64,000 bases of DNA from a virus (IMGVR_UViG_3300028832_000109:44609-108608), one strand, 5' to 3'. Positions 6,097-64,000 are shown, counted from the first letter of the stretch. Numbers and translations: made by a program. The notes: generated by a model not told the origin, from the letters alone.

Positions 6097-6104
6097 AGGA
6101 TTCC

Positions 6105-19145: not shown

Positions 19146-19614
19146 TTCCGTTCACCTTCGCCGCGTGCACCTTGCGTGCCGGGGCCTTCTTTTTCTTGGT
19201 GAGAAGCGCAAGCAGCTTCTCCGGTTCATATATCCGGGCATACCGTTCCTCGATGGCGTCGAGGTCGAACAATCCGTAGCGCAACGTGTGCACCACGTCG
19301 TTATTGCTGAGCCCGGTTACCTTCATGATGTGGTCAATCTGCTCCTTCTTCGCGCGGACGACTTCCCCCTTGGCGATGTTCCAGCGGTTGGACCAGTGGA
19401 CGTTGTTTAGCCCGTTGAATGTCATCGCCTGGATGTCCCTGGGGAGATGGGCGAAAGAGAGCTCGTTCAACTCGTGGGTAATCTTCCGGAGGGACGGGTC
19501 CATCGACAGCGCCTGCACGACGTTGTACAGCTGGAACTCGTCCTTGTCCAGTTCGCTTACGGGAAGTCCCCGGCGCCGGTCGTCGAGAAACTTGAAGAAG
19601 TTGAACGCGGCCAT
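19135..19614 (-). CDS. Clamp loader small subunit (gp62-like)
   Basis: 'FQLYNVVQALSMD...HELN...LPRDIQ'; coupled directly behind the gp44-like gene. Confidence 0.75.
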   Translation of the reverse strand: MAAFNFFKFLDDRRRGLPVSELDKDEFQLYNVVQALSMDPSLRKITHELNELSFAHLPRDIQAMTFNGLNNVHWSNRWNIAKGEVVRAKKEQIDHIMKVTGLSNNDVVHTLRYGLFDLDAIEERYARIYEPEKLLALLTKKKKAPARKVHAAKVNGNGK

Positions 19615-20702
19615 CAGGACACCGCCTTTGGCACGGCAACCTCTTCCAGCGGCATCTTCCCCACCATCTGGTACTGGGCGAGGAGGAGCTGCACGTCGGC
19701 GAGGAACTCCTCGAGGGTGACCATTTGGTTGACCTGCGACTGGGTGGCACGGAGCGCCTTTCCGAGCAAGGAGGCAAACGAGATGGACAGGTAGTCAATC
19801 TGCCCGTTCGTCGGGAGCGGGATGCGTTTCTGGAAGTATACACCAAAGGGGACGTACACGCTTCGGTAGTCCTGGACATGGGTCGACAGGTAATACTGCA
19901 GCTTGCGGAAATCCATCGCAATGGTCAGCTTGTATATGTCGGCGATGGTCTGTTCCCTGATGACGTTCGGGTGGCCAACTATGCTCCCGCCGTTTTCGAG
20001 GAACGTGAGGTGCATCGCGTTAATCATCGCGCGGATGTCCGGGTAGCAAGCCGATATGGTCTCCGCCAGGGTGTCCTTGCTCCACGTCCCCTTGCTGATG
20101 TCGGTCTCGGTCTTCGCAATGTAGCGAAGCCTCTTGTATATGCGGCGCCTGTACTCGACATCGTCCTCCGAGTGGTCGAATGAAATCGGCTGGCAGCGGG
20201 AACGGATGGCCTCACGAATCTGCCAGATTGAGTTGCAGGTAAGTATAAAACGAAGGTTGGACGAGGTTGCCTCGATGAGACTCTGTAGCTTCGTGTAGAA
20301 GGAATCGGGATTGGACGGGTTGTCCGCCTCGTCGATGACGTAGTATTTCGGAAGACCGTTCCCGGACCTGTACATGCCGCCCTCCTCGATTGACTGCAGA
20401 ATCTCGGAGTCGCGCCTGGCATAGATTACCTCGCGCTCGGCGCCAAGCATCAGGGGGAACGCCATGGCCAGGCTCGTCTTCCCTGTACCGGGGGAGCCGG
20501 AATGGAATATGTAGTTGTTGTACCCGCCAAGCTTGATGGCGTTGCGTATGATGTTGTCGAGCCTTGTCGGGAGTATGATTTCGTCCAGGTTCACACCCCG
20601 ATACTTCTCCACCCAGGCACGCGTACGGTCGTCGGACACATTTACCGTTGACTGGTCGTTCTGTAAGGGCTGACCCGTTATAAGGTCCACTTCTTGTTCC
20701 AT
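19614..20702 (-). CDS. Clamp loader large subunit (gp44 / RFC-like AAA+)
   Basis: 'WVEKYR', Walker A GSPGTGKT, Walker B VIDEAD, 'RFILTCN', 'IRSRC'. Confidence 0.95.
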   Translation of the reverse strand: MEQEVDLITGQPLQNDQSTVNVSDDRTRAWVEKYRGVNLDEIILPTRLDNIIRNAIKLGGYNNYIFHSGSPGTGKTSLAMAFPLMLGAEREVIYARRDSEILQSIEEGGMYRSGNGLPKYYVIDEADNPSNPDSFYTKLQSLIEATSSNLRFILTCNSIWQIREAIRSRCQPISFDHSEDDVEYRRRIYKRLRYIAKTETDISKGTWSKDTLAETISACYPDIRAMINAMHLTFLENGGSIVGHPNVIREQTIADIYKLTIAMDFRKLQYYLSTHVQDYRSVYVPFGVYFQKRIPLPTNGQIDYLSISFASLLGKALRATQSQVNQMVTLEEFLADVQLLLAQYQMVGKMPLEEVAVPKAVS

Positions 20703-20720
20703 AGGTTATACCTCGCTACC

Positions 20721-20746
20721 AAATATAGCAAAGACCGGCATAAACT
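20721..20746. promoter_or_regulatory. Back-to-back TTGCTATATTT (minus, clamp loader) and ATAAACT (plus) motifs
   Basis: aaatatagcaa at 20721-20731; ataaact at 20740-20746. Confidence 0.65.
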
Positions 20747-20753
20747 GTCGGAT

Positions 20754-21110
20754 ATGAGCGTCATTCTCAACTTCATGAACAAGGTCACCGAGAAGGACCC
20801 CGAACTCCGGGGCAAGGTCGCCGGCATGTACCGGAACATCTTCGAAAGCTCGGCCACCGACATCAACGCAAAGCAGATTGCCGCACAACCGGGAACTTGC
20901 CAGCAGGGAATAGCCCCGAACGGGCGCCTTGACCGGAACACGGAAATGCCTACGGACGAAACAGTGGCGCGACTGATGAAGAACTCGTACGCGGCCCGGT
21001 TCGGCCAATGGTGCGGCTCGGTTTCTCCGGGAAGGACTTCACTCGGAATGTGGGGTGGTACCGGCCCTCAGAACGTTAACGCGTCCACGGATTCCGGGAC
21101 CACTAAGTAA
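20754..21110 (+). CDS. Hypothetical late protein
   Basis: Start at MSVILNF, 7 nt after ATAAACT; contains 'IFES'. Confidence 0.65.
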   Translation: MSVILNFMNKVTEKDPELRGKVAGMYRNIFESSATDINAKQIAAQPGTCQQGIAPNGRLDRNTEMPTDETVARLMKNSYAARFGQWCGSVSPGRTSLGMWGGTGPQNVNASTDSGTTK

Positions 21111-21434
21111 TCAAACGACGGCGTCTAAATCGACATCGACCCGTTTCGCTTTGGGAGCCATATCATTGATTTCGCCAGCATCGTCCTGGACCTGGGCGCT
21201 AGGTACTTTGTTCACGTGAACAGAAAAATCTACCGATACGTTGTATCTCCCCGTCTCGCGCGTCATGACGCTCGACTCTAGCGCTGCCATAATCTCCTTT
21301 GCAATGCCGTCCGCGAGCTTGCACGATAGTGGCTGAGACACATACTCGCGAAACTCCTCTTTACTGAGAAGAGTAATCATGGGCATACTAAGCGACAATG
21401 AGATAGTCGGAGATTTCGATTCGGACGTCCCCAT
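21111..21434 (-). CDS. Hypothetical protein
   Basis: 107 aa with its own TTGCTATATTT motif at 21465-21475. Confidence 0.65.
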   Translation of the reverse strand: MGTSESKSPTISLSLSMPMITLLSKEEFREYVSQPLSCKLADGIAKEIMAALESSVMTRETGRYNVSVDFSVHVNKVPSAQVQDDAGEINDMAPKAKRVDVDLDAVV

Positions 21435-21492
21435 AAGAATTTCCTATTGATGGTTTCCTGGGGCAAATATAGCAATTAATACACCGGCTGCA

Positions 21493-24480
21493 TCAAATCA
21501 GTTCCAGCATAGCGTCGCTCTCGTCATATTCCAGCTCTTCGGGCCAGCCAACGGCGGTGAAGAGTCGCCCGATGACCTGGGCGACAGACACCTTCCACTG
21601 TTCATCCCAGTCAATATAGAACATGTCTATCAGACGCTGTGGGCAATGGTCCCCGGTATAGCAAATGATACTCACGCCGAAATCATCGTCAGCCTTCTTG
21701 ATGAATTTCATCTTTTCACCGGCGACGACCGGCTCGTACGTTTCCTGCGATAGCACGGGGTCGGTTTCGATAAGGTAGTTCCAGACCGATGCCGCCCGGC
21801 GACGCCAATCCAACTTGGCCAGCTGCTCTTGCGGAAGACGGAGTTGAATCGGGTACGGAATCGGTTCCTCCTTCATGCCGGACGGAATGGAAATCTTCGT
21901 GTAGTCGCCCTTGTCAAGGGCATCGTAGAACTCGCGCTTGATATCGAGCAATCTTTCCCGCACCGCCTTACGGTCCATGGTCTTGAGCATGAGCTTCACC
22001 ATGTCCATCATGCGTTCACGCGAGAAAAGCGTAGTGGAGCTGCGAACGATTTCCAGGCCGGTCACGGCGAAATCCGGAGTGAGCTCCATAGTACCCGTAC
22101 GTACGATGTTCCCGTCCTCGTCCTTCACCGGGTCCTTGTCAAGGTACACAATGTCTTCGTTGGATTCCGCTTCGCAGATGTACTTCTTCTTTGCCGTGAC
22201 GATGGCCTTGTATATGCACTTCTCGCGTTTCAGGAAAAGCTCGTTCTTCAGGTATCCCCAGCGGTTCGCGTAGGCGAGCATGAACTCGTCCAGTTTTTCT
22301 TCCAGTATGACGGCATCCATCATTCGGCAGAAATCCGTCAGGCGGTAGCGGTTATAGATGATGCGGTACCCGTCTCCCCACACGATACCGTCATGGAACA
22401 TAATCTTCACCTTGGTAAGACCGCTCTTCGGGTCAACAACGCGGTTTTCCGGGTCATGCCATGTATCGTGGGCATAGCGGTTGCACATGCGATTAAAGCA
22501 CTTCTTCGATGCGAGTTCTTCATCATCGGAGTTGCCAAAAGTGTACCGCTCAACTTGCTCATGCCCCTTGTACACGATGACCTCTGTGCCCGTGCCCTGT
22601 TTCTGCCGGAAATTCTCGAACAGGTCCCCGACTTTACAGTAGAATGAGTCGGTGTCGCCATGTGACATGCGCTTGTAGAGAATCTGATTGTCAACGTCCT
22701 GCACCGTTCCAAGGTAGTCCGGGTTGATTGTCGGAACGTACCCGAAAGCGTTGATGAACCGCTGGTCCGAGACGACCTCCTCGTTCAAGTAATGGGCCAG
22801 CTGCTCGATGGTGAACTTGATTAGATTGCGTCCATATGCCGTGATTGACGCGGCGTTGTCCACGTCGTAAAGCGGGAAGATGTTGGCGCCGAGCAGGCCG
22901 TATAGCGAGTTTCCAAGGACCTTGTACACCTTCTGCATCATGTCATAGATGTTGGTCATCTCGTGGTCGCCGGCCTTCTTCGCGGCCTTCATCTTATTCT
23001 TCAAGTTCGCACGGCCGTCAAAAAGGAGACGGGTAACCTTCGGGACGATTCCTTCCTTGTCCTTCCGGAAGTATACCTTGTACCGGCCGTTGTGCGTCCA
23101 CGGACTCTCTATGAGAGTAGCACGCTCTTCCGCAGTCATTATGTAGTCGAGAGGCTTAATGACCTTGGTCTCCGGGCTGGTATTGAATGTCATCATTATG
23201 GACGGGTAAAGCGAACGGTAGTCATACGAGACGAGCCACTCGTAGAAACCTGGGATGGAGTAGACAAATGCTCCGGGATACTCCTCCTTCTCCTTCAGCT
23301 TGTATGCCGGGAACACCATGTTGTTCTGGTGGAGGTAGTTCATGACGAACCCCACCAGCATCTTCTTGGACTCGAAAACGAAAGAGAACGGGACGTGGGC
23401 CTCGGCAGCAGCGGCAACGCAGAGCTGGAACATGCGCTCGTGGAGCTCGATTTTCTTCAGAAGCCTGACGTCCTGCCAGTTATACAGGATGAACTGTGAC
23501 CAGTAGTTCTTCCACGACCGATAGCCATCCGGGAGCGGGGCCTTGTGTTCGCCGCACACCTTGTTGCCGATGTAGTCGAGCTTGTACGAAGGCTCCTCGG
23601 TAAAGGTGTACTTGCGGTATAGCGCAAGGAAGTCGATAACTTCGGTACCCGCTATCTGCAGCTCGCCCTTATCTGTCATCCAGGCCTTCTTGAACTGAGC
23701 CGGGAGCCTGGACAACTGCTTGAGTTCTACGCCGAGCTGCTCGGCGCGGTTCGCCATGTACGTAGTATCGTAAGAGAAGTTCCAGCCGGAGAGTATCGCT
23801 ACCTCGTTGCGGCCTATTTCAGAGAAAAGCTGGTTGAGGAGGTCTTTCTCGGTGGCGCACAGGACGTACTTTCCGTTCTCCTTGGCCATCTCCTCCTTGA
23901 CGTAATCCTCGACATCCTTCCCGACCCCGTAGGTTATGTAGTTGTCGGTAGTCGAGAAGTAAATCGTCACACAATTAATTGGGTATTCGGCGCGGTGGGC
24001 CGCTGGAAAGCGGCCTGTAGTCTCCACCTCTATATCGAGGAAGCATATGTTGATTTTCTTCATGTCCGGCTTCAACATGCCGGTATGTTCGTAATGCTTC
24101 TGGAGGAACCTGGCCCGGGGGTCAATGTCTATCTCCGCAATCTCGTTGTGCGGCCCGCGATTGTTGTTCCAAATGTCACGTTCCTTCCTTGTATGGGCAC
24201 GAGCGACATACATGGGTTTCCCGTATATGTCAGTCATACCACATGGTATAGCGCCATACTGCCCGCGGTTTGGCGTATAGAACGTGTTAACGATGCGCTG
24301 CTGCTCCATCGTCCCGTCATCATACCACAGAAACAGGTTGTCTGTATCCCTGTCGTGGTATATGGCCGACCACATCCTGTACTGCTTCGGTGGCTCGTTA
24401 GCGGAGTATAGGCTTGCCGAGCCGATGGCAGTCTGCCAGGTGGTCTGCACCGGGTCACTAGCTGTCATTAACTGTTCCAT
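21493..24480 (-). CDS. Family B DNA polymerase (gp43-like)
   Basis: Exo motifs FLDIEV, GWNFSYD, YNWQDV; polymerase motifs DYRSLYPS, KVLGNSLYG, HGDTDS, KKKY. Confidence 0.97.
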   Translation of the reverse strand: MEQLMTASDPVQTTWQTAIGSASLYSANEPPKQYRMWSAIYHDRDTDNLFLWYDDGTMEQQRIVNTFYTPNRGQYGAIPCGMTDIYGKPMYVARAHTRKERDIWNNNRGPHNEIAEIDIDPRARFLQKHYEHTGMLKPDMKKINICFLDIEVETTGRFPAAHRAEYPINCVTIYFSTTDNYITYGVGKDVEDYVKEEMAKENGKYVLCATEKDLLNQLFSEIGRNEVAILSGWNFSYDTTYMANRAEQLGVELKQLSRLPAQFKKAWMTDKGELQIAGTEVIDFLALYRKYTFTEEPSYKLDYIGNKVCGEHKAPLPDGYRSWKNYWSQFILYNWQDVRLLKKIELHERMFQLCVAAAAEAHVPFSFVFESKKMLVGFVMNYLHQNNMVFPAYKLKEKEEYPGAFVYSIPGFYEWLVSYDYRSLYPSIMMTFNTSPETKVIKPLDYIMTAEERATLIESPWTHNGRYKVYFRKDKEGIVPKVTRLLFDGRANLKNKMKAAKKAGDHEMTNIYDMMQKVYKVLGNSLYGLLGANIFPLYDVDNAASITAYGRNLIKFTIEQLAHYLNEEVVSDQRFINAFGYVPTINPDYLGTVQDVDNQILYKRMSHGDTDSFYCKVGDLFENFRQKQGTGTEVIVYKGHEQVERYTFGNSDDEELASKKCFNRMCNRYAHDTWHDPENRVVDPKSGLTKVKIMFHDGIVWGDGYRIIYNRYRLTDFCRMMDAVILEEKLDEFMLAYANRWGYLKNELFLKREKCIYKAIVTAKKKYICEAESNEDIVYLDKDPVKDEDGNIVRTGTMELTPDFAVTGLEIVRSSTTLFSRERMMDMVKLMLKTMDRKAVRERLLDIKREFYDALDKGDYTKISIPSGMKEEPIPYPIQLRLPQEQLAKLDWRRRAASVWNYLIETDPVLSQETYEPVVAGEKMKFIKKADDDFGVSIICYTGDHCPQRLIDMFYIDWDEQWKVSVAQVIGRLFTAVGWPEELEYDESDAMLELI

Positions 24481-24495
24481 AGGTCTTTATGGAAT

Positions 24496-24505
24496 AAATA
24501 TAGCA
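24496..24505 (-). promoter_or_regulatory. Extended -10 type promoter TGCTATATTT of the polymerase gene
   Basis: Motif lies 16 nt (from TATATT) upstream of the ATG. Confidence 0.7.
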
Positions 24506-24529
24506 CATAGTGGGCGGGGATGCTAGAGA

Positions 24530-24552
24530 AAATCCCGGAAAATCCGGGATTT
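24530..24552 (-). terminator. Probable intrinsic terminator
   Basis: Perfect inverted repeat AAATCCCGGA-aaa-TCCGGGATTT between the late gene 24596 and the polymerase promoter. Confidence 0.7.
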
Positions 24553-24595
24553 ATTAAATGTGTGCTGATGTTCGGATAATCCGATTCGTTAAGAA

Positions 24596-25252
24596 TTAAT
24601 CTTTTTTAGCATCGGATTTTCCCGACTTATTTGCGCCGGGCATTTTCTTGCCAAGGTAAGGTGACAGCTCGTCGATTTTCTTCAAAACCTTCGCTGCATC
24701 GGACTTGGTTTTCTCGTCGACCCCAAGGCCCTTCACGAATCCTTTGAGCATCTCGATTTTTCTTTGCCGGCGGCTTTCCTCGGAAAACTTCTTGTTGGAC
24801 TCGGCACCGGAACGCTGGGTAGCGGCTGCATTCTTGGCGGCAGTGTCGAAACTCCCGGACTTGGGCTTGGGTTCCCCCTTGGCCTCATGGGAAGCATCCT
24901 CGGTCACCAGTTGCGTGACCTGCTTGTCTTCCTTCTTCTCGGTGACGGTGACGTTTTCGGTGACCTGGTCCTTGGTCTGTTTAGTCGGCACCTCGGTGCC
25001 CTTGGCTGCCTTAGAGCCCTTGCTCATGTCAGGGTTCGTTGCCGTCTTGGCCTTGCCGACCTTCTTGGAATCGGCCGTCCAGGTACCGAAGTCCACCTTC
25101 TTTCCTTCGAAAATGCCGATGGACTCGACAATGGGACGGGGGTTCCGGACCTCGTTGTACGGTAGCTGTTCTTCGATTGGCTGATTTGCAATGCTTTCAA
25201 ACAATGCAAGAGTGCGGTCTTCTTCTTCGAGGCTGTAGTAACCAATACCCAT
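24596..25252 (-). CDS. Hypothetical Lys-rich late protein (possible internal head protein)
   Basis: ATAAACT at 25288-25294; ALFES, IVES, IFEG near the N-terminus. Confidence 0.65.
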   Translation of the reverse strand: MGIGYYSLEEEDRTLALFESIANQPIEEQLPYNEVRNPRPIVESIGIFEGKKVDFGTWTADSKKVGKAKTATNPDMSKGSKAAKGTEVPTKQTKDQVTENVTVTEKKEDKQVTQLVTEDASHEAKGEPKPKSGSFDTAAKNAAATQRSGAESNKKFSEESRRQRKIEMLKGFVKGLGVDEKTKSDAAKVLKKIDELSPYLGKKMPGANKSGKSDAKKD

Positions 25253-25317
25253 GTCGATACCTGCCTAAGGAAATGCGTTTTGTGAACAGTTTATAATCCG
25301 AGTCTTCTTTTTTATCG

Positions 25318-26064
25318 CTAAAAGTCCCAATCGAGCAACAACCCGACACGCCCTCGCCATGGTTCGGTGTATTTTGCGGTCATTCCTCTCTTTTTGCAGG
25401 CATTGATAAATTCGTTTGCGGCAACCGGGTCAAATTCTTCCTCATGGAACCATATACCGGTATGGCCGTGTGCCCAGTGAACCTGTCCACTGCTTATCTG
25501 CGACTTTATGCCATCAAGGCCCGGTATTGCCTTGCCGACTTCCTTTTCGGCCGCATCAATCTCGCCAACGAGAAGCTTGTCCTTTTCCTTTTCCAAGGCC
25601 TCGTCGGTGAAGTTTACCCTCATCATGATATCCGTCGCGTTCATTGTCCAGAAGTTTGACCGGATACCGGCATCGGCTAGCATTTGGACCAGTTCCGCCA
25701 TGGTTGACTGCACCACGGGATTGTTTGCCTCGTTCTGTACATTTAAAGCGGATAACTGTATTCTTCCGGTAGGCTCGCGCTCGGACAGTATATCGTTAAG
25801 CCCGGCCAGTATTTTTCTACCGAATGTCCCAAGGACCCTGAGATGATATTTTGCACTTGCAGGACCTTCTGCAGTCGGGGCCTCGTTGGCCAGACCGGAA
25901 ATCTTCTCGTCCAGACGTGCAGAAAAATTCTTAATTCTGTCGCCCACCGGCTGCAGCGTGTATTTTGTTGACTCCATGAGCGCACACTCAGCGAACGCTC
26001 GTTCCGCCGACTCGAAATTGGGACACAACAAGCTCAAATCCATTACCGGCATATCATCCTCCAT
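25318..26064 (-). CDS. Hypothetical late protein
   Basis: ATAAACT at 26075-26081; NFES, ALMES near the N-terminus. Confidence 0.65.
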   Translation of the reverse strand: MEDDMPVMDLSLLCPNFESAERAFAECALMESTKYTLQPVGDRIKNFSARLDEKISGLANEAPTAEGPASAKYHLRVLGTFGRKILAGLNDILSEREPTGRIQLSALNVQNEANNPVVQSTMAELVQMLADAGIRSNFWTMNATDIMMRVNFTDEALEKEKDKLLVGEIDAAEKEVGKAIPGLDGIKSQISSGQVHWAHGHTGIWFHEEEFDPVAANEFINACKKRGMTAKYTEPWRGRVGLLLDWDF

Positions 26065-26119
26065 GTTATTCCATAGTTTATGCTCCAGTCGATAAACTGC
26101 ATTTCACGGAGATACCGCA

Positions 26120-26716
26120 ATGAACAAACCGAGGATTACCACAATGTCGTCTCCCCTTTGGAAAGCACTGGCGACTGGATACCAGGTTTGCCTGGAAAGC
26201 GAGTCATACAATCCCGGACAAGTCCGGGAGGCTACCCGCGAAGAATACGACCGAGTATGCACAGCAATAGCCGAGAACGAGGTAACCGAGTATTATCCCG
26301 GACTTACCCCGGAAGAACACGCGGCCAAGGTGCAGAGCTTCCTTTCCGACAACGACCGGGTGTGGAACTGCCATCTGCACGCCTATACCTATGACGGGAA
26401 CCAGATGCTCGTAACCGTCCCGAACAAGGACGGCAGCTCGTACATCTTCCTGGCATACATCGAGCCGACCAAGCGCGGTACTGGCCTGGCAACGATGGTC
26501 CTGAAGAAGTGCATAGCCGACCACCCGGAAGGCCTGTCCTTGCATACAAACAAGGAGAACCGTCTAGTACGTGGCCTGTGCAAGCATTTCGGGTTCGCCG
26601 AATACCCGTCCAGAATCCCCGACGAGGTATTCATGGCAAACAAGCCCGGTATCGGAGGCGAGGAATGGTGGGACGACCCGGAACAGGAGAAGAGCAATGG
26701 ACCTGAACTTACCTAA
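26120..26716 (+). CDS. GNAT-family acetyltransferase
   Basis: 'YIFLAYIEPTKRGTGLATMVL' (motif A, R.xG.A) and 'LHTNKEN..VRGL..HFGF' (motif B); ATAAACT at 26092-26098. Confidence 0.8.
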   Translation: MNKPRITTMSSPLWKALATGYQVCLESESYNPGQVREATREEYDRVCTAIAENEVTEYYPGLTPEEHAAKVQSFLSDNDRVWNCHLHAYTYDGNQMLVTVPNKDGSSYIFLAYIEPTKRGTGLATMVLKKCIADHPEGLSLHTNKENRLVRGLCKHFGFAEYPSRIPDEVFMANKPGIGGEEWWDDPEQEKSNGPELT

Positions 26717-27356
26717 GACTTCCACGGCCAGCCACGAGCTGCCCATATTCAACGAATTGAGCAAGGAATCCGGACTCCCGGTAAGCGAGATAAAGGCCAG
26801 GTTCCGCAACAAGATGCTCGAACTCCATCAGGAGGCGCTCGACGACCCATCCACGCAGGTGATGGGCGGGGATTCTCAAGAAATGGTGCACAACGCAATC
26901 AACGAGTTGCGCAAGGAACTCCAGCACCCCGAAGAAACATCCAGCGACTCCGAAGAATACGATTCCATCATGGGTTTCGACCCGTCGCAGCCGGTGCCCG
27001 GTGCAGACATCTTCTCATCCGATGGCGGAGGTTTCGGAGGTGGCGGATTCGGTGGAGGGTTCGGTGGCGACATTGGCGGAACCGGTGGTGACATTGGCGG
27101 GTCTGCCGGCGGTGGATTCGGCGGAGGCATAGACAATATGGACCTCGGGTTCTCTGATGAAGGCATGGACGCCGTAAACTCCGTAGCCAGCGAAGGATAC
27201 GAAGACCCGAACATGTCCCCGGCCGAGTCGGCTGGAGAAGTAAACGCCATGTCGGAGCTCGAACCGGACATCCCGGACGGGACCGACAATACTGAAAACG
27301 GCGGTTCCGAAGAACCGCCGCCAGAAAATCCGGAACCCACCGAAGACAACGGCTAG
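26697..27356 (+). CDS. Hypothetical acidic, Gly-rich protein
   Basis: Start at MDLNLPK; GGGFGGGGFGGGFGGDIGGTGGDIGG tract. Confidence 0.7.
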   Translation: MDLNLPKTSTASHELPIFNELSKESGLPVSEIKARFRNKMLELHQEALDDPSTQVMGGDSQEMVHNAINELRKELQHPEETSSDSEEYDSIMGFDPSQPVPGADIFSSDGGGFGGGGFGGGFGGDIGGTGGDIGGSAGGGFGGGIDNMDLGFSDEGMDAVNSVASEGYEDPNMSPAESAGEVNAMSELEPDIPDGTDNTENGGSEEPPPENPEPTEDNG

Positions 27357-28576: not shown

Positions 28577-28622
28577 AAAATTCGCTCCTTTTCCGTTAAA
28601 ACTATGACATTTCAAGGCAACG

Positions 28623-28647
28623 AAAAAACGCGGGCTTTCGCCCGCGT
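28623..28647 (-). terminator. Intrinsic terminator
   Basis: Minus strand ACGCGGGC-GAAA-GCCCGCGT-TTTTT. Confidence 0.85.
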
Positions 28648-28663
28648 CTCGAATATCTGTCAG

Positions 28664-30190: not shown

Positions 30191-30239
30191 GGGAACCTCG
30201 CCATCGTGGAAAAATTTCCCGTAAGTTTATATTCCGAGG

Positions 30240-31124
30240 CTATTCCACCAGGCTTTCGTGGTTGATTTCGCCACCGTCGCTCTCCATGCCGGCAACGTAC
30301 ATGGAAATCGGGTCGGCTGGGTCGGCGCCCGGTATGTTGGAAAACGCCTTCACGGTCACCTTGTCGCGCTGGGCAGACTTGATGTGGCGAACCTCCACCT
30401 CGTAGTCCGTGTCGATGCCTTTCAGGATGTTGAAGTAGATTGCCGGAATCTTGCGGAACTTGTCGTGCGAGCTGGCGTAAGCGGCATCTATGTTGGCCGC
30501 GGCCCCCATCTTGGTGCAGTTCCTCGGGATGACGTTGGTAATCTGCTGTCCGGTTCGTCCCTTCATGTAAATGCTGACCTTGGTGTGGGTGAGCACGACG
30601 GAGACAAACTGGCAACCTGGGACCATCTTCAGCTCGTCGCACATCGTCTTCAACTCGTTGCGGTCCAGTATGACGGTAGACAGCAGGTTCATGGGGTCCT
30701 TGTCGCGGTCGCAGGGGCAGTGCCTGGACTTGGCGTCGAAACGGGTCGGGTCGGCGCATATGCTACGCGCGACCTTCGTCGCGGCCCCATCCGCGTCGTT
30801 CATGAACCTGACCATAGGGTATACGTGACCGTTCGTCAGGGTCTCGTCGAGTACGCTGACGTTTGCGACAGGATTTCCGGGAAAGCCGACGAGTTCGCAG
30901 AACCTGATGAATTCCATCATCGAGGCGACACATACCTCGTTCCCGGAAAAGTTAAGGTCGCTCGGACCAGCCGAGATGTGCAGGAAGGTCGCGGTTGTCG
31001 GCACCGTTATGCGGCACCGCCCGTTTCCCTTGAAGAACACGGTGGCCTTGGACTTGCTTACCATCGTGAGTTTTTTCAGCAGGGCAAAAAACTGCGGGCT
31101 CATTGTAATTATTTGAGGTTCCAT
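30240..31124 (-). CDS. Sliding clamp (gp45-like)
   Basis: 'MSPQFFALLKKLTMVSKS..VFFKG...EVCVASMMEFI' parallels the gp45 N-terminus (LS....ILK.F..IN..I...G...I.DL.EFL); replication operon. Confidence 0.75.
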   Translation of the reverse strand: MEPQIITMSPQFFALLKKLTMVSKSKATVFFKGNGRCRITVPTTATFLHISAGPSDLNFSGNEVCVASMMEFIRFCELVGFPGNPVANVSVLDETLTNGHVYPMVRFMNDADGAATKVARSICADPTRFDAKSRHCPCDRDKDPMNLLSTVILDRNELKTMCDELKMVPGCQFVSVVLTHTKVSIYMKGRTGQQITNVIPRNCTKMGAAANIDAAYASSHDKFRKIPAIYFNILKGIDTDYEVEVRHIKSAQRDKVTVKAFSNIPGADPADPISMYVAGMESDGGEINHESLVE

Positions 31125-31135
31125 AGGTCCATCCT

Positions 31136-33142: not shown

Positions 33143-34302
33143 CAGAACAAGACCTCCGCCTTGCGAGAATTGGCGTGATTCTCCTTGTATTTCTTGATTC
33201 CCTCGAATCGCTTTGCTGCAGCTGTCTTGCTCATGTTGCCATATTTCAGCGCGAACAGCACCGCTGACCCTTCCGGTTCGCGGACCCTGGCCTCGATTAC
33301 GTCGCGGCGGACGAATCCGTCCTCGTCAAGCGGGAATTCCCCGGCCGTCACGGCAGCATTCACGTCCTTGCTGTGTATTCCTTCCCAGGTGAACCACTTG
33401 AAGCCGAGCTTGCACGTCTTCTCCCTCGCTTCCCTGGCCTTATCATCGTTGTCCCATATGACTACCACGCGGTCCTTGTGCTGCATGATGTCCGGATTCT
33501 TCATAACAAGGCTGTCGAAATGCTCGATACCGCCTATCGCTATCGCGTTATGGACGAACAGCGAGTCAACTGTACCTTCAAGGACATAGAGGGGTTCATC
33601 AAAATTAACGAAGCCGATATTGTACGCCTCCCGGTGAACCCCGGCAAAGTTCAGGTACCTCAGAGGATTCCTCTTATCAATCGCTCGAGCGTCAAACTGG
33701 CTCCACCCGCCTCCAAACCGGTAAAACGGGATAATTAGACGGTTTTTGTACTTGTTCCCGGTTGGGCGCCCATTCGCGTCAAGAATGTAATTGCCGTTGG
33801 CATCGCGGTCGAGAAATTGGTCACCCTGAAGACATACGAACCAGTCGGAATATACTTCCTCTCGTATCATACGTTCTCGGCAATAGGCCAGTGCCGCCTC
33901 GGCGAGTGGATGATTCGCCGTTATCGGGATAATCTCCCCTTCCTTGAACGGCAATGTAGTGGGAACTTCGATTCTTGCGGTCGGCGCGTTCCGGACCTCC
34001 TTGGGTTGCTTGCCCTCGTTTGGGCCAAACGCCTGAAACATTAACTGATGGTACGCAGTCTCATCACGCTCCTTCAGCCATTTTGCATAAGGAATTTTGG
34101 GCGTACACTTGTAACATACATATAACCAGGTGTCGGTATATATGTATGCCTTCTTCTTGTTTGGCTGGTCCGGGCTGCCGCATTGCGGACATACGAAGTT
34201 ATAGAACCTAGGGTTCGTGTCGTCTAAATTATAGCTCCCCAGCTGTTCCCTAATTGACGTATCGTACACCGAGGCCGGTATGTCATCAAAACTAAATGCC
34301 AT
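33142..34302 (-). CDS. DNA primase (gp61-like)
   Basis: 'YNFVCPQCG', 'CYKC', 'RLIIPF', TOPRIM 'YVLEGTVDSLF', 'WDND', 'KDVN'. Confidence 0.95.
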   Translation of the reverse strand: MAFSFDDIPASVYDTSIREQLGSYNLDDTNPRFYNFVCPQCGSPDQPNKKKAYIYTDTWLYVCYKCTPKIPYAKWLKERDETAYHQLMFQAFGPNEGKQPKEVRNAPTARIEVPTTLPFKEGEIIPITANHPLAEAALAYCRERMIREEVYSDWFVCLQGDQFLDRDANGNYILDANGRPTGNKYKNRLIIPFYRFGGGWSQFDARAIDKRNPLRYLNFAGVHREAYNIGFVNFDEPLYVLEGTVDSLFVHNAIAIGGIEHFDSLVMKNPDIMQHKDRVVVIWDNDDKAREAREKTCKLGFKWFTWEGIHSKDVNAAVTAGEFPLDEDGFVRRDVIEARVREPEGSAVLFALKYGNMSKTAAAKRFEGIKKYKENHANSRKAEVLF

Positions 34303-34307
34303 GCTTT

Positions 34308-34318
34308 AAATATAGCAA
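34308..34318 (-). promoter_or_regulatory. TTGCTATATTT promoter, leaderless geometry for primase
   Basis: TATATT-taaagc-ATG. Confidence 0.65.
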
Positions 34319-34349
34319 CTGCGGGTCGACTGGTAGCCGGCCCGCAGTT
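34317..34349. terminator. Hairpin after the SSB gene
   Basis: AACTGCGGGTCG...CGGCCCGCAGTT imperfect inverted repeat. Confidence 0.45.
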
Positions 34350-34364
34350 ATTTTCCGATGTCAA

Positions 34365-36044
34365 TTAGAACGGGAGGTCGTCGTCGCTATCGGTCTCGAC
34401 AATCGGACCATTCGGGTCCACTGCCGGAGCCCCGTTGTGCGTGAACTGCACAGGGTTGGACAGTGGTGGCGCACTTTGCGGTACGTATCCCGTGGACGCC
34501 GGCTGACCCATCGGCGCAGCGGGTGCTGCTGGCGAAGGTGTGGCAGGGGCAACGCCCATCCCGAAGTTGGGCATAGCTGCGGGCTGTGCGGTAGGCATGG
34601 CTGCTGGCTGTGCGGTAGGCATGGCTGCGGGCTGTGCGGAAGGCATAGCGGCGGGCATAGCTCCAGGCATTCCAAACCCTGCACCAGGAACGGCATTCTG
34701 TGCGGAGATACCGGCAGCGAAACCTGGGGTTGCAGGAGCCTGAGCCGGGGTGGCAGGTGCAGACGGAATGCCGACATTCATCGCATTCGGTGTCTGGGCA
34801 TATGCCGTGGTCACCGGGGCAGCGGATTCAGGAATCGGATTGGGCATAGCGCAATTCGGGATTGCTGCTTCCGCCTGACCCATAAACGCAGCGGGATTGC
34901 TATTAGTAACAATCTTTGCGTTTGCCGGAACACTCGGGATGCTGTTTTGCGGCATGGCGGCACCACCGGTGGGGAACGGCTGCGAAGCGAATGACGGAGA
35001 CAGCGGAGAGACCTGAGCCGGCTGACCAAACTGTGGCTGCTGTCCGAACTGGGGCTGCTGGCCATACTGTGGCTGCTGGCCGAACTGCTGCTGGCCGTAC
35101 TGCTGCCGACCGTATCCACCTTTAGCGGCCATCTTCTGCTGAGCGAGCTTGTTGGCTTCCTGCCAGAATTCGGCAAGGTCCTGGATAGCCTGGTCAGGTG
35201 TCGGGATGTCGTCGAAAACGAACCTCAAGTCATGGCACTGGTCAAGAAGAGCCATGATAGCATTCTCATCCGCGGCAATACCGATTGGTGCACCAGTATT
35301 CGGGTCGGTCACCTGCTTGAATGCAAGCGGGTACGACTTTTCAACGAACTTGCTGCCCTTGTATGTCGGAGCGCCCTGGCGGCCGTCGCCGTAAGTCTTG
35401 GTGGCATCCCATGCGCCAACAAGGAAGTAATCCTTTCCGTTCACGGGGTCATACGGGATGAATGCGTCGCCAGTATCAACATTGATTGTTCCCTGCTGCT
35501 GAGGCTGCTGGGCCTGCTTCTGCTTTTCCATATAATTGTCGACAGGGGTCTGGAACTGCTCGTGCTGGTACTTGGAATGGGCCCAAACCTTCACCTGGTT
35601 ATTGAGTTCGGGGTGGTTTTCGTCCTGACGAATGAGGAAGTTCCCGTACCATTCTTCTTCTGCAAGCTGGCGGAGGAATTTCTTGAGCTCCTCCTTACTG
35701 GCTCCCCGCTCCTTTGCAGCATTGTATCGAGCCCATACATCCTCGCAGTAAGGGCATGAGATAACACCGGGGATATTCTTGCAGCATTTCTTAACAAGCA
35801 TCTTCCCGGAACCCAGGTCCTTGATGCGGTGCACCAAGACGGAGGTGTAGGGGTAGGCCCTCATGTCGTGGCCAAGAGGCATTGGACGGAGAAGGGCCTT
35901 GTATGAGGGATTGTTCTTTGTTACTCTTGCACGGTAGATTCGCGGGTCTTCTGCTACGCCGCCTTGGGGTGAGACCGTCGGCATTGCTGCCGGCATCTGC
36001 ACTGTGAGCATACCCATGTTGGGTACCTGAGTATTCTGTTCCAT
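34365..36044 (-). CDS. Single-stranded DNA-binding protein (gp32-like) with long low-complexity tail
   Basis: 'CPYCE', 'YGNFLIRQDENHPELNNQVKVW', 'PYDPVNGKDY', 'PTYKGSKF'; ends DSDDDLPF. Confidence 0.88.
   Translation of the reverse strand: MEQNTQVPNMGMLTVQMPAAMPTVSPQGGVAEDPRIYRARVTKNNPSYKALLRPMPLGHDMRAYPYTSVLVHRIKDLGSGKMLVKKCCKNIPGVISCPYCEDVWARYNAAKERGASKEELKKFLRQLAEEEWYGNFLIRQDENHPELNNQVKVWAHSKYQHEQFQTPVDNYMEKQKQAQQPQQQGTINVDTGDAFIPYDPVNGKDYFLVGAWDATKTYGDGRQGAPTYKGSKFVEKSYPLAFKQVTDPNTGAPIGIAADENAIMALLDQCHDLRFVFDDIPTPDQAIQDLAEFWQEANKLAQQKMAAKGGYGRQQYGQQQFGQQPQYGQQPQFGQQPQFGQPAQVSPLSPSFASQPFPTGGAAMPQNSIPSVPANAKIVTNSNPAAFMGQAEAAIPNCAMPNPIPESAAPVTTAYAQTPNAMNVGIPSAPATPAQAPATPGFAAGISAQNAVPGAGFGMPGAMPAAMPSAQPAAMPTAQPAAMPTAQPAAMPNFGMGVAPATPSPAAPAAPMGQPASTGYVPQSAPPLSNPVQFTHNGAPAVDPNGPIVETDSDDDLPF
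34570..34660 (-). repeat. 24-bp coding tandem repeats (PAAMP[S/T]AQ) in the SSB tail
   Basis: ggcat(a/g)gctgc(g/t)ggctgtgcgg(t/a)a x3. Confidence 0.85.
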
Positions 36045-36120
36045 AGGAGATTTCCTTATAATGTGTCCGGTTTAACTTGCCGGCATTAATAAATATAGTA
36101 AAATCCAAAGACAAAAAGTG

Positions 36121-36816
36121 TCATCCGGATGATTTTTCTTCGCTCGGGGTATCTTTTTTCGCCTTCAGGTGCGGAATAGCGAGTTTCGGACCCAGGTCGT
36201 GCCCGAGCAATTTCATCTGTTCCGCCTTTTCCAGGGACGCCTCAACAAGCTGTTCGAAGTCATCGGGCACGGTATATTCCTCACCAAAGTCCGACATGGC
36301 CTTCTCCAGCTCGGCCGCACACTCGCTAAGGATGTCCTCGAACTTCCAGTCAATGCACTTGGCAACCGTATTGTCGATGGTGCACGCCTCGACGAACCGC
36401 TTGGAAATCTCGTCGTGGCTAAGCGCCTCCTCGGTAACGTTCGGGTTGTACTCGTCATCCACGTGCATGACGCCCTCGTGTTTCTCGTCCTTGACCGTGA
36501 GAATCTTCTTCGCTTCGGTATCGGCCATGTATTCGGCGCCGGTGACTTCCTCGGTCTCGCGCTCGAACTCGGGCGCACGCATCATGTAGTCCTTCCCGAG
36601 GAACTCGTTCTTTCGCGCCTTGCGCAGGTCGACCAGCCATTTCTGGCAGGCTTCGGTTTTGACGAGCTGCCCGTGGGATGACTTTTCCAGGTCGGCATTG
36701 ACGATGAGCGCCGACGTACGCGCGATTTCCTTCTCGCGCGGTGCGAACTTCTTGTCGAATTCCTCGTTTTCTTCCTGGACACGCTTTCCATATCTCGGGA
36801 ATTTAAACTCAGCCAT
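36121..36816 (-). CDS. Hypothetical charged protein
   Basis: 231 aa, Glu/Lys-rich, in the replication operon. Confidence 0.7.
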   Translation of the reverse strand: MAEFKFPRYGKRVQEENEEFDKKFAPREKEIARTSALIVNADLEKSSHGQLVKTEACQKWLVDLRKARKNEFLGKDYMMRAPEFERETEEVTGAEYMADTEAKKILTVKDEKHEGVMHVDDEYNPNVTEEALSHDEISKRFVEACTIDNTVAKCIDWKFEDILSECAAELEKAMSDFGEEYTVPDDFEQLVEASLEKAEQMKLLGHDLGPKLAIPHLKAKKDTPSEEKSSG

Positions 36817-37507
36817 TGTTGCTCATCTCCTGCATGATTTCGTCGATTTGGTCCATATCGATGTCGATGTTGGACAGGTCCGGCTCGATTGACGGCACAT
36901 CCTCTACCACACGGCGTACTTTCCCCTCGCCAAGGCACAGACGGCACGGTTTCCCGTTCACTTCGCCGGTACCGCCGCATTCGGGACACTCCACTATGTC
37001 CGGTTGTTCCTCGAGCCGCTTCTCCCCTACCTTGACGGGATGCTTGGCCACGTAATCTAGTTCGCTGTCGGTAATCTTGATATTCTTTTCCGCCGCCATC
37101 TTCTGCTTGATGTCGTTCTCGAGGATGAGGGTGAACTTGTTCGCATCTACATGGGGGGCCAGTGCTAGCACAATGTCAACCATGCCGAAGCCCGGAACTT
37201 TCGTGGAATCTTCCATTATCCTCTCCGGGCGAGCATACTTGTTGTAGACCTGCCAGATGGCCAGGTTCACCTTGTCCTTCGCTTTCTTGAGATAGGAATC
37301 CGGCATCTTCAGCGTGATACAGATATCTCCAGGGAACCTCGACGTCTGAAGGAAAGCATTAATTTCCCCCACTATATCGTCTACCCCGAACTTCCTCTGC
37401 GCTTCCGAGCCGCTGGGCCCCATCTCGTCGCCACGATTGATGCCGTCAGTCTCTTGCGGGTCCCCGCTCAGACCGTCGTTGTCAGCATATTCTTCACCGT
37501 ACCTCAT
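36809..37507 (-). CDS. Hypothetical protein, possible gp33-like late co-activator with a DnaJ-type Zn finger
   Basis: CPECGGTG / CRLCLGEG pair is clear; 'MVDIVLAL...LILENDIKQKMAAEKNI' weakly resembles gp33, which lies near gp32 in T4-like phages. Confidence 0.4.
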   Translation of the reverse strand: MRYGEEYADNDGLSGDPQETDGINRGDEMGPSGSEAQRKFGVDDIVGEINAFLQTSRFPGDICITLKMPDSYLKKAKDKVNLAIWQVYNKYARPERIMEDSTKVPGFGMVDIVLALAPHVDANKFTLILENDIKQKMAAEKNIKITDSELDYVAKHPVKVGEKRLEEQPDIVECPECGGTGEVNGKPCRLCLGEGKVRRVVEDVPSIEPDLSNIDIDMDQIDEIMQEMSNNG

Positions 37508-37542
37508 GTATATTCCGCCATAGGTGTATTCCGGTGTTGAAA

Positions 37543-38289
37543 CTATGCTTTTTTCTTTCTCACCGGTTTCTTGCGGCGGGCCAATGCTTCCAGGTCGATG
37601 GGCCAGTCATCGCGATGCACCACCTTGTAGTCGGCCAGGGCCTTTGTGCGGGAATCCGAGCGGAACAGAAGCAGTGCACGGGTGTCTTCCGGGATACTGT
37701 CGGGCCCAAGGAGTTCCAGCTTGATATGGTTACGGAGAATCTCGCACATCCAGAAGGCATCGCAAAGGTCGGCGTGAGGACTCTCGTACTGCTTAGGGAA
37801 TTGCTCGAACTCAGGAAAATAGAACTGGGGATACAGCGCCTTGACTGCCTCGCACATGGCCGGTTTACCGGCATTACCGTTCCCCGTGGCGAAATGCTTA
37901 ATCTGGGTAATCCCGTATGTGATTATCCCCTTCCCCTTTAGATAGAAGTGCCTGCGGTATATCCCACAATACTCCCCTATTTGGAAAATCGCATTACTGT
38001 TACCCTTGTTGGCTTCCTCGTATGCATAATCCTCGAAAGCGATATACTTCACGTCATCCATGTCGCGGTCGAGAATGGCGAGTGCCCGTTCCTGCCTAAC
38101 CAGGTGAGGAATCTTGTCGTAATCCGTGCCGATACACATGATGTGTACGTGGTCGGTTTCCAAGATAGCGTTCAGATGCGCCTGGAAACCGTAATAGTGG
38201 ATGTCCTTGATGTCGAAGGTCTTGTCGTCGAGGTCCATTATGACCTTTCCGGTAGAGTCCATCGACGGGTCTATGCCTGCTATCTTCAT
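37543..38289 (-). CDS. RuvC-like Holliday junction resolvase
   Basis: 'IAGIDPSMDSTG', 'IAFEDYAY', 'IKHFATGNGNAGK..M', 'DLCDAF'. Confidence 0.88.
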   Translation of the reverse strand: MKIAGIDPSMDSTGKVIMDLDDKTFDIKDIHYYGFQAHLNAILETDHVHIMCIGTDYDKIPHLVRQERALAILDRDMDDVKYIAFEDYAYEEANKGNSNAIFQIGEYCGIYRRHFYLKGKGIITYGITQIKHFATGNGNAGKPAMCEAVKALYPQFYFPEFEQFPKQYESPHADLCDAFWMCEILRNHIKLELLGPDSIPEDTRALLLFRSDSRTKALADYKVVHRDDWPIDLEALARRKKPVRKKKA

Positions 38290-38303
38290 GCGTTAAACCT
38301 ACA

Positions 38304-40013
38304 TCAGATATAGTCCGACACGGTATCGTGCACGGTCGTTTCCGCGGTATTCGATACCTCAACTCCAAGCTTGCTTACTCCGCCGGGAATGCTGGCGTTC
38401 TCCTGCTTGGAAATGGCGCGTTTCGGTCCCTGTTTCTGCCCTCGTTGTGGAGAATTGATTTGCGGTTCGACCTCGGCCATAGCCGTATTGTATGCGTTGA
38501 CCTCGTCGGCCGTCGGGCTGAACCACCGCATCTTTCGGAAATCGCACCGGGTAAGGAACATGACTAGAGCCTGTCCGAGACGGGATTTCAGGATGTAATG
38601 GCAGAACATGCCCATTGAGCGGAGTACGTCGTTCGCCGCGATGGAAATCATGAGGTCCGCCGTTTCGGCATACCCCGAGGAACCCTCGACCGACTCTATA
38701 CCAGCTTCCACGTTGTGGTAGCCGCTCCTGTTGAACTGCACGGCAGACACGCAGGCAAAGTTGCGCTCTATTGCAATGTCCCTCAACTGCTCGGCCTTCA
38801 TCACGCCGTCGTTGTACATGCTGCTCTCGGTAAGCCGACCGCGGCTGGCCGGCTTCATGATTCCGATATAGTCGACGACCAGGAGGTCGAGCTTTCCATG
38901 GGCGAGTTCGAATGAATCTATCACCGCCTCGATTTCCACCGGGGTGGTCGTGGTCTTCATGTAGCGAACGTGCAGCTGGCCCGGCTTGGCGCCGACCGTT
39001 CCTGTGGCAGCGGCCGCTGCATCGATGCGTTCGCGTATTACGTCACCGGTAAGGTTGACGACATCATACATATCAACGCCGCATATGTTGGCCGCGAGAC
39101 GCTGCCATACGTAATCTTCTGCAAGTTCCAGTGTAATGTAAAGTACGTTGAACCCGCTCTTGTATGCAAAGGCCGCCTCGCTACATAGAGTAAGCGACTT
39201 ACCGATGTTTGGCTGACCGACGAAGAGGGTCAGCGTCTTGCGGTAATAACCGCCACCGGCCATCATCCCGTTCTGGTCCGGTCTACCTGTATAGTAACGT
39301 ATTTCGTTGATGCCAGACGGTATGCACTGCTTCTGCTCGCGGAGCTTCGCCAGCGCCAGTTCGGCATCGCTGTACATGTTCAGGCCGAGGTCAGTATGCA
39401 AACTGAAATTAACGGAAGCCTGCAAACGAGGAATAAGGTCTCGTATGCCGTCCACTCGCTTGTCGTGGATGGACTCCGCCGCACTTACGAGAACTTCCTC
39501 GGAAAGACGCTCCTTGAAGAACGATTCCACCATCAGGACAACGTAGTCCTGGTGCATCGTCTGAATCGGGGTGTTGTATATGAAAATCAGCTTGTCGCGG
39601 GCCTGCAACGCGTATTCGTTGGCGCCCATCCCGGTAATCAGCTCCTGTGCAGTGGGAATCCGGTCATGTTTCTTCTCGAACATGCGCACGATTTCCACGA
39701 TTGTCCTGTTTATCGGGTCCCGGAACAGTTCCGGGCGCAGCGTATCCCTCAGCTTCGGCCCAACGGCGGCATCCTGGAAGAATACCCGTATTACCAGGTC
39801 TTCCTGAGTGAGTGCATACACCTGCTGAGGAGGCTGCAAGTAACCGGGCTGCTGCCCGTTCAACTGAGCCTGCACTACCTGATTGGCTGCCTGCACAGCG
39901 GCCAACTGGGTATTCATCGCAGGATATATCGCCTGCTGTTGTACCATAGGCGCATACGCACCCTGCATAGTTGGTTGTGGCTGCGCATACGACGGGTTAG
40001 CTAATTGTTCCAT
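38304..40013 (-). CDS. Replicative DnaB-family helicase (gp41-like)
   Basis: Walker A GQPNIGKS, 'VLYITLEL', 'LLVVDYIGIM', 'SAVQFNRSG', 'ETADLM', 'KSR'. Confidence 0.95.
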   Translation of the reverse strand: MEQLANPSYAQPQPTMQGAYAPMVQQQAIYPAMNTQLAAVQAANQVVQAQLNGQQPGYLQPPQQVYALTQEDLVIRVFFQDAAVGPKLRDTLRPELFRDPINRTIVEIVRMFEKKHDRIPTAQELITGMGANEYALQARDKLIFIYNTPIQTMHQDYVVLMVESFFKERLSEEVLVSAAESIHDKRVDGIRDLIPRLQASVNFSLHTDLGLNMYSDAELALAKLREQKQCIPSGINEIRYYTGRPDQNGMMAGGGYYRKTLTLFVGQPNIGKSLTLCSEAAFAYKSGFNVLYITLELAEDYVWQRLAANICGVDMYDVVNLTGDVIRERIDAAAAATGTVGAKPGQLHVRYMKTTTTPVEIEAVIDSFELAHGKLDLLVVDYIGIMKPASRGRLTESSMYNDGVMKAEQLRDIAIERNFACVSAVQFNRSGYHNVEAGIESVEGSSGYAETADLMISIAANDVLRSMGMFCHYILKSRLGQALVMFLTRCDFRKMRWFSPTADEVNAYNTAMAEVEPQINSPQRGQKQGPKRAISKQENASIPGGVSKLGVEVSNTAETTVHDTVSDYI

Positions 40014-40043
40014 AGGTCCACAAGTCCGTCAGTTATCTGTCGT

Positions 40044-40083
40044 AAATATAGCAAAGGCGAGAACCTCGATTCTCGCCTTTTTT
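40044..40083 (-). promoter_or_regulatory. Hairpin/terminator after uvsX abutting the TTGCTATATTT promoter of the helicase
   Basis: AAAGGCGAGAA-cctcga-TTCTCGCCTTT at 40053-40080; aaatatagcaa at 40044-40054. Confidence 0.65.
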
Positions 40084-41770: not shown

Positions 41771-41782
41771 AGTCCATTAATC

Positions 41783-63852: not shown

Positions 63853-63863
63853 AGAACGGTGGG
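63841..63863 (+). terminator. Hairpin overlapping the stop of the SWIM gene
   Basis: CCCACCGT...ACGGTGGG inverted repeat. Confidence 0.45.
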
Positions 63864-64000
63864 CTTGAGGGAGCCCGGTTTCCCGGTAGTTCCCTCGATT
63901 GGCCAGTTGACGGTGGCCTGCCAAGTAGATTCAGCTTGCCATATATGGGCATAGTGAATGTACTTGGGTGGTAACGGCTAGCTATATTGATGCTCGCATT

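Follow-up and report, generated by a model that had tools for sequence, protein, structure and literature searches.

A conserved start-codon element on replication genes of an uncultured T4-like rumen phage, a candidate operator of translation

Why should five non-homologous genes of one phage replisome open with the same ten nucleotides? The question is raised by a 64,000-nucleotide stretch of viral DNA (hereafter the window), bases 44609-108608 of the 108,608-bp IMG/VR record IMGVR_UViG_3300028832_000109, in which a sequence-only reading had noticed CCTATGGAAC across the start codons of genes for a clamp loader, a DNA polymerase, a sliding clamp, a single-stranded DNA-binding protein (SSB) and a replicative helicase, and had proposed it as a replisome-wide translational operator. 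The record is rated 26% complete, with some 60-75% of the genome missing, and the public runs listed as containing this stretch are all of DNA, none of RNA, and are labelled as gut metagenomes of cattle or sheep. Its source is a rumen jumbo phage from a T4-like lineage that is deep-branching and uncultured; a search for near-identical phage records found none, and the nearest cultured phages, Sinorhizobium phiM12-like phages and cyanomyoviruses, share about 26% polymerase identity with it. To our knowledge, the balance of replisome subunits in a phage is understood for T4 only, through RegA and the autoregulation of gp32 and gp43.

The motif is present as five exact copies in the window, exclusively on the minus strand, and each copy opens a replication gene, the ATG being in every case the first start of a long open reading frame (ORF). 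No further copy exists in the window, as had been claimed, or in the full record. A sixth site carries the core of the motif only.

20696-20705, minus strand: CCTATGGAAC, start of the gp44-like clamp loader gene (ORF 19614-20702)
24474-24483, minus strand: CCTATGGAAC, start of the family-B DNA polymerase gene (ORF 21493-24480)
31118-31127, minus strand: CCTATGGAAC, start of the 294-aa sliding clamp gene (ORF 30240-31124)
36038-36047, minus strand: CCTATGGAAC, start of the gp32-like SSB gene (ORF 34365-36044)
40007-40016, minus strand: CCTATGGAAC, start of the DnaB-like replicative helicase gene (ORF 38304-40013)
41765-41772, minus strand: core-only copy CTATGGAA(G), with start CTATGGAAG, of a conserved 92-aa ORF (p92, 41492-41770) upstream of a UvsX-like recombinase

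Shuffled sequences give an expectation of 0.06 copies, and the count of five was reached in none of 100 shuffles. Under a position-specific model of start context, built from the 92 ATG starts of the same record, 0.036 full matches are expected against the five seen (Poisson P ~5e-10), and the motif is not frequent at unrelated starts. The association runs in both directions: CCT occupies positions -3 to -1 at five ATG starts, all five of which continue with GAAC at +4 to +7, and five of the six ATG-GAAC starts in the record are preceded by CCT, the exception (ACTATGGAAC) lying outside the window, at the p75 gene described next. The partial matches reported near 6096 and 41770 are real (CCTATGGG at 6099 and ACTATGGAAG at 41772), and a sixth near-copy, ttgctatatttcaggttaggaCTATGGAACag, precedes a 75-aa membrane-like ORF (p75) outside the window, at record position 24909 on the minus strand. 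The extended element of this genome is CCUAUGGAAC, mostly CCUAUGGAACAR. Rfam and tRNA scans of the window gave no match, and a literature search with the motif string returned primers only.

The evidence that the element is more than a local repeat comes from its relatives, approximately 50 related contigs of up to 422 kb collected by polymerase searches (a search with the helicase locus only gave a single match). The exact 10-mer is specific to this genome and has no copy in the relative G003 (84% identical), so that the expected conservation in related phages holds for a shorter core, CU-AUG-GAA at positions -2 to +6. Across 21 orthologous starts, anchored on the ATG and drawn from five genes in four to six lineages, this core is 100% identical, against 26-68% identity at adjacent positions; control genes of the same genomes (primase, uvsX, clamp loader and the gene-62-like ORF) show 0.29-0.67 identity at the core positions. 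Additional metagenome lineages agree with this footprint. Contigs of four DNA runs are 97-99% identical, and the differences listed give no power to test the 50 motif bases. Gene by gene, the core is distributed as follows.

Polymerase: CTATGGAA at the start in 7/7 lineages with at least 79% identity, no exceptions
Helicase: CTATGGAA at the start in 5/5 lineages, no exceptions
Clamp: CTATGGAA at the start in 8/9 lineages, the exception being the G003 lineage, with G/T at -2
SSB: CTATGGAA at the start in 4/6 lineages, the exceptions being G001 and G004
p92: CTATGGAA at the start in 3-4 lineages, the G004 ORF possibly not being homologous

Flanks and codon 3 drift, but 21/21 motif-bearing starts keep both the non-coding CU at -2/-1 and the synonymous GAA, the pattern that had been named in advance as the mark of an RNA-level signal. 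The motif Glu codon is GAA in every copy, although GAA makes up 47% of all Glu codons in this genome (GAG 53%) and 60% in the relative G004. That GAA is kept where GAG is equally used, and that the non-coding bases are conserved alongside it, points to a signal at the level of RNA, and the alignments make it very probable that CU-AUG-GAA is a selected nucleotide-level signal held by purifying selection.

The genes that carry it are assigned with uneven support. The clamp loader (362 aa; phrog_168, E 4e-40), the family-B polymerase (995 aa; phrog_262, E 5e-139) and the DnaB-like helicase (569 aa; phrog_19, E 6e-61) are recognised by sequence profiles, and the gp32-like SSB (559 aa; phrog_224, E 7e-8; Pfam gp32 under the cut-off) is weakly supported. 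The 294-aa ORF at 30240-31124 (minus strand) has no match among Pfam, PHROG or PDB sequence profiles. Its AlphaFold model (pLDDT 64, pTM 0.61) retrieves with Foldseek a top 50 made up entirely of PCNA, 9-1-1 or beta-clamps (E ~1e-8, TM 0.5-0.6), and the earlier label of a gp45 clamp thus holds at fold level, for a predicted two-domain sliding clamp of the beta-clamp/PCNA fold. The sliding clamp of this phage group is recognisable by predicted fold only.

At which step of expression might such a signal act? Two promoter-like motifs are found in the phage, TTGCTATATTT(A/G) for early and replication genes and ATAAACT for late genes. The former resembles an extended -10 element (TGnTATAAT) without a -35 and often stands directly after a terminator hairpin; a generic sigma-70 scan was not enriched (13 found against 12.5 expected), a -35 element being missing from the phage promoter. 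In four of the five motif genes a promoter box lies 16-47 nt upstream of the ATG.

20722-20730, minus strand: TGCTATATT, early/middle promoter motif, extended -10-like, 19 nt before the clamp-loader ATG
24497-24505, minus strand: TGCTATATT promoter motif, 16 nt before the polymerase ATG and just after a terminator-like hairpin
36092-36100, minus strand: TACTATATT promoter motif, 47 nt before the SSB ATG
40045-40053, minus strand: TGCTATATT promoter motif, 31 nt before the helicase ATG

The helicase box directly follows a 12-bp terminator-like hairpin (40053-40080), and the clamp gene, which has no promoter box of its own, follows the stop of a 668-aa gene with AAGGA before the motif. If transcription starts about 7 nt past the hexamer, as at sigma-70 promoters, the polymerase leader would measure approximately 10 nt and contain no Shine-Dalgarno sequence. 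Several of the five starts had been said to lack a well-spaced Shine-Dalgarno; this is borne out for the polymerase and helicase only, since the clamp loader (GAGG, 8 nt), the clamp (AAGGA, 7 nt) and the SSB (AAGGA, 8 nt) each have one. The motif is therefore independent of the Shine-Dalgarno and of promoter distance: it stands at starts that have the former and at starts that lack it, within an operon as well as 16-47 nt from a promoter. It is always in the same orientation and in the same register relative to the ATG, and folding of the five motif regions gave z-scores of -1.0 to +1.1 and no common helix. Fixed register, fixed orientation and independence of Shine-Dalgarno and promoter argue for a role in translation rather than a promoter or Shine-Dalgarno role.

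The same observations bear on the very improbable reading that the repeat is an operator at the level of DNA, or else a functionless product of chance or of short-tract conversion. A DNA-binding candidate does exist, in that a 668-aa protein with multiple helix-turn-helix (HTH) regions is encoded between the primase and clamp genes and adjoins the latter, and CCTATGG recurs in a tandem array with an 11-bp period in G004 (6.4 copies of the unit TATGGGTTCCC on the gene strand, L040:17235-17306, equal to record 237,235-237,306). This array sits intergenically in a 600-bp GC-rich, repeat-filled spacer, is not in other fragments, and looks like the iterons of an origin or partition site; an IMG/VR-wide scan for the tandem pattern returned unrelated matches only. 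A strict ATG register, a single orientation and a promoter that lies at varying distances or is absent do not fit a DNA operator. Chance is excluded by five copies against 0.04-0.06 expected, and conversion leaves unexplained why the core is conserved across lineages against diverged flanks.

Several further features of leaders were seen. In the polymerase leader (24478-24497, minus strand), UUCCAUA pairs with UAUGGAA of the gene's own start in a 7-bp hairpin that is not conserved, with an analogous pairing in G001; this hairpin probably lies upstream of the inferred transcript start and so would form in read-through RNA only. The G004 clamp-loader start is preceded by a CCTATGGAT mini-ORF that overlaps the ATG. 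At the primase gene (34302, minus strand) a TGCTATATT box at 34309-34317 lies 6-8 nt before the ATG, a spacing shared by many early genes and conserved family-wide (for example in L017, L024 and L026, and in G004 at 95916, 100719, 103992, 144909, 148365 and 149924), and mRNAs of this kind, including that of the primase, are probably leaderless.

How the element came to lie on these genes can be read from its distribution. A polymerase tree groups the motif-bearing lineages into a single clade (support 100/99). In sisters at 66-74% polymerase identity the polymerase gene lacks the motif and its leader is very short or missing, and nothing is shared among the starts of clamp, helicase and primase; an intermediate clamp lineage (68% identity) is likewise without it. 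The motif arose once in this clade and later spread to further genes, and it is common to non-homologous replication genes by convergence. The clamp-loader copy is unique to this genome, where MAEE in the orthologs has become MEQE (one relative has CCTATGGCT), and the primase gained CCTATGG in L101. Turnover of this kind, with gains at the clamp loader and primase and an SSB that lacks the core in two lineages, is typical of a regulon.

Beyond the core, each lineage has a flavour of its own. In this genome it is GACCTATGGAAC, with Gln as codon 3 of the polymerase, helicase, SSB, clamp loader and p75 genes, written with both CAA and CAG, and these five genes have shifted in parallel to ATGGAACAR (Met-Glu-Gln) in this genome alone. 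Codon 3 of the polymerase, helicase and SSB in the sisters is Asn, Thr, Ala or Tyr, the sister clamp loader starts Met-Ala-Glu and the G003 ortholog of p75 starts Met-Asp-Ser; the +7 base is C here and A in most sisters. G001 uses CTGCTATG in three genes in which the other lineages have ACCTATG, and G004 uses GAACCTATGGAA in five genes. Parallel change of several unlinked sites in one lineage would be predicted by a co-evolving trans-acting factor, the neutral alternative being short-tract templated conversion.

The shift at codon 3 also keeps a protein-level explanation alive in part. A protein-level tag had been suggested by the sequence-only reading itself; in the form weighed here, an N-terminal Met-Glu-(Asn/Gln) might serve the modification, stability or recruitment of replisome subunits, the nucleotide identity being its by-product. 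All motif genes do start with Met-Glu, and five proteins here converge on Met-Glu-Gln with either Gln codon. Such a tag is nonetheless improbable, as it accounts neither for the non-coding C(-2) and U(-1), which are invariant, and C(-3), which is frequent, nor for the exclusive use of GAA against a usage of 47-60%, and residue 3 varies across lineages (Asn, Thr, Ala, Tyr, Pro, Ser, Gln). We know of no bacterial or phage system that reads Met-Glu N-termini.

Taken at the level of RNA, the element is most likely a single-stranded one that spans the start codon of the polymerase, helicase, clamp and SSB genes and, in this genome, of the clamp loader gene, along with a few other early genes. That it is the operator of a trans-acting translational regulator is the likeliest of the mechanisms considered, and comes close to an even prospect without quite reaching it. 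Under such a scheme a protein or RNA other than RegA would bind the -3 to +9 region of the motif-bearing mRNAs and compete with the initiating ribosome, so that replisome subunits would be adjusted or repressed jointly, in the manner of RegA in T4, and the parallel change of five operators would reflect co-evolution with the specificity of the factor. The fuller version, a non-RegA regulon of the whole replisome in which a phage factor reads about 12 nt (-3 to +9) at the polymerase, helicase, clamp, clamp loader and SSB genes, its specificity co-evolving with the operators as the parallel switch of five of them from GAAAAY-type to GAACAR would suggest, is a tentative proposal and somewhat doubtful. 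The original wording of a replisome-wide operator fits the five replication genes but is too strong, as the clamp-loader copy is unique and near-copies stand at two non-replisome genes; likewise, the idea that an RNA-binding protein or antisense RNA tunes the replisome gained an RNA-level signal but no factor to read it.

A number of points weigh against an operator. Family searches identified no trans-acting factor, and in this record neither a complementary RNA nor one carrying several copies of the motif was found. The choice of motif genes was partly circular, and only about six lineages were compared. Conversion, templated or ectopic, between short repeats of identical sequence might explain the homogeneity within the genome. 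Finally, CTATGG is a moderately common start context after an ordinary Shine-Dalgarno in G004, so the motif may in part reflect a preference for start context in general.

This last point leads to a serious, if unlikely, rival, in which the element is a class-specific initiation context, CUAUGGAA, read by the host machinery with no dedicated regulator. This might work, for example, by stacking or pairing of U(-1) with A37 of the initiator tRNA, by the lack of structure in an A-rich second codon, or with an initiator tRNA supplied by the phage, and the effect would be an adequate or matched initiation rate for early replication mRNAs, which often have short leaders. Polymerase leaders inferred at 0-10 nt family-wide, the many leaderless early genes, the unstructured motif sites, the appearance of CTATGG after a normal Shine-Dalgarno at several G004 starts and the failure to find a repressor all suit it, as does an initiator-like tRNA-Met among the 24 tRNAs of G004. 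Yet the motif is missing from most early or leaderless genes and from all late, presumably highly expressed, genes, the clamp and SSB keep it despite a good Shine-Dalgarno, and outgroups run the same genes without it; nor would a change at +7 to +9 in five genes of one lineage be expected of a context that the ribosome reads. The tRNA itself (L038:18002-18076, in a cluster at 189,868-202,940) bears initiator hallmarks, namely an acceptor stem whose first pair is mismatched, an anticodon stem closed by three G-C pairs, and a position 33 occupied by C rather than U. It was rejected as the reader of the motif, as it is confined to G004, the matches in two other records being other tRNAs, and its distribution could not be tied to the motif.

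If the operator reading is kept, what would the factor be? The regA homolog that had been suggested is not detected: six-frame HMM searches with PF01818, run on this record and on five relatives, returned nothing at E<=10; the records are fragments, with one relative at 91% completeness. RegB (PF10715), CsrA, bS21, S1, CSD and ProQ were likewise absent in six-frame searches of up to six related records. The slot of regA, distal to the gene-62-like ORF (19135-19614), holds a 102-aa ORF (p102, 18837-19145, minus strand) that is conserved in G001, G003 and G004 and matches neither PF01818 nor any Pfam or PHROG family. Its conserved core of about 60 aa looks helical from its sequence, and its N-terminal tail, acidic here, is strongly basic in the relatives. 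As to a factor made of RNA, the proposed complementary small RNA, one bearing GTTCCATAGG, was not found in the available sequence; on the transcribed strand of the 108.6 kb the motif complement does not occur, and the best near-match, with one mismatch, lies inside a coding region. A multi-copy sponge RNA was rejected, the clusters of half-sites being coding noise, and so was the G004 array in this capacity, whose 11-bp period looks like that of DNA iterons and which has only CCTATGG in common with the motif. Small motif-bearing or syntenic ORFs were also set aside, the p92 orthologs ranging in pI from 4.8 to 9.4, p75 being membrane-like and p102 without a family, and an ESM Atlas search of small candidate ORFs gave no usable match.

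The absence of a RegB family member also bears on the possibility that the element is an endoribonuclease site, of the phage RegB-like or host toxin type, at which a cut at the start codon would inactivate the mRNA or render it leaderless at a set time. This is quite improbable, all the more as a specificity of 8-12 nt is long for known mRNA interferases. In its favour, this is a single-stranded and strand-specific site with a fixed place on the initiation regions of early genes, as with the targets of RegB (PMC3014915).

Among described systems, the element resembles the targets of CsrA/RsmA in placing GGA elements over a single-stranded initiation region, many copies reading GGA(C)C-UAU-GGAAC with two GGA elements 8 nt apart across the start site. 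Typical dual CsrA sites are spaced wider than this. A phage csrA and a sponge RNA were not found, and GGA alone leaves the invariant CUAU unexplained.

The closest described analogues are the operators of RegA and the start-associated repeats termed SAS/ESAS, and the element differs from both by an invariant 8-mer across the AUG and second codon. The T4 RegA regulon comprises genes 44, 45, 62, rIIB and regA and about 25 others, regA lies just distal to gene 62 in all T4-related genomes, and its operators have no stable structure, RegA being thought to compete with the 30S subunit (PMC3014915). In both cases, unstructured sites lie at the AUG of several non-homologous early or replication genes of a T4-like module, and the gene sets overlap at the clamp loader and clamp. 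RegA is not detectable here, however, and a small unrelated protein occupies its slot; RegA sites follow no clear consensus, SELEX having yielded the AU-rich AAAAUUGUUAUGUAA (PMC3014915), whereas the element is an invariant 8-mer containing G and C, CCUAUGGAAC and AAAAUUGUUAUGUAA having only UAUG in common. Moreover, the polymerase and SSB, which are autogenously controlled in T4, belong to the motif set here, and the motif is confined to a young clade. Because three of the five testable features of RegA fail, the element is RegA-like in logic and not a member of the RegA family. The SAS of Cluster K mycobacteriophages (Pope et al. 2011) is a 13-mer, GGGATAGGAGCCC, that lies 3-7 bp upstream of starts, contains the Shine-Dalgarno core and marks 10-20 genes per genome, with its function unknown and a host or phage factor suspected (PMC3203893). 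It too is a short, asymmetric, one-orientation repeat at the starts, mostly ATG, of non-structural genes of different families, conserved across subclusters, but the present motif spans -3 to +7, is separate from the Shine-Dalgarno and marks about 5-7 genes.

A lineage without detected RegA carries a much sharper start-codon signal on its replication genes. With the putative operator defined to the nucleotide, with natural variants of its specificity and with motif-free sisters, the question is testable and a factor could be nominated by comparative genomics. Should the regulon prove true, it would offer a natural and compact system for the stoichiometric control of a multi-subunit machine; should no factor exist, the element would represent an unusual Kozak-like start context in viruses that infect bacteria, with a bearing on gene prediction and expression design.

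Other features of these phages were noted in passing. The late-promoter-like ATAAACT has 25 copies in the record, at gene fronts on both strands, with minus-strand sites that include window positions 5593, 6129, 17892, 25294, 26081, 30230, 48376 and 59156, and it is distinct from the T4 late promoter motif TATAAATA. Late genes after ATAAACT use Shine-Dalgarno sequences of the AGGAGG type and are without the motif. At 26064-26081 (minus strand, ATAAACTATGGAATAACATG) a late-promoter-like box runs into a Met-Glu-stop mini-ORF before the ATG of a 248-aa gene. A TTGCTATATTT promoter box lies 12 nt ahead of a tmRNA that G003 itself encodes (record 144,405-144,781; tag AEESYALAA). Near opposite ends of the present record, two ORFs of about 2,510 aa have no nucleotide similarity to each other, and the record ends themselves form an inverted terminal repeat of 169 bp with 99.4% identity (record 1-169 and 108,441-108,608, the latter being window 63,833-64,000).

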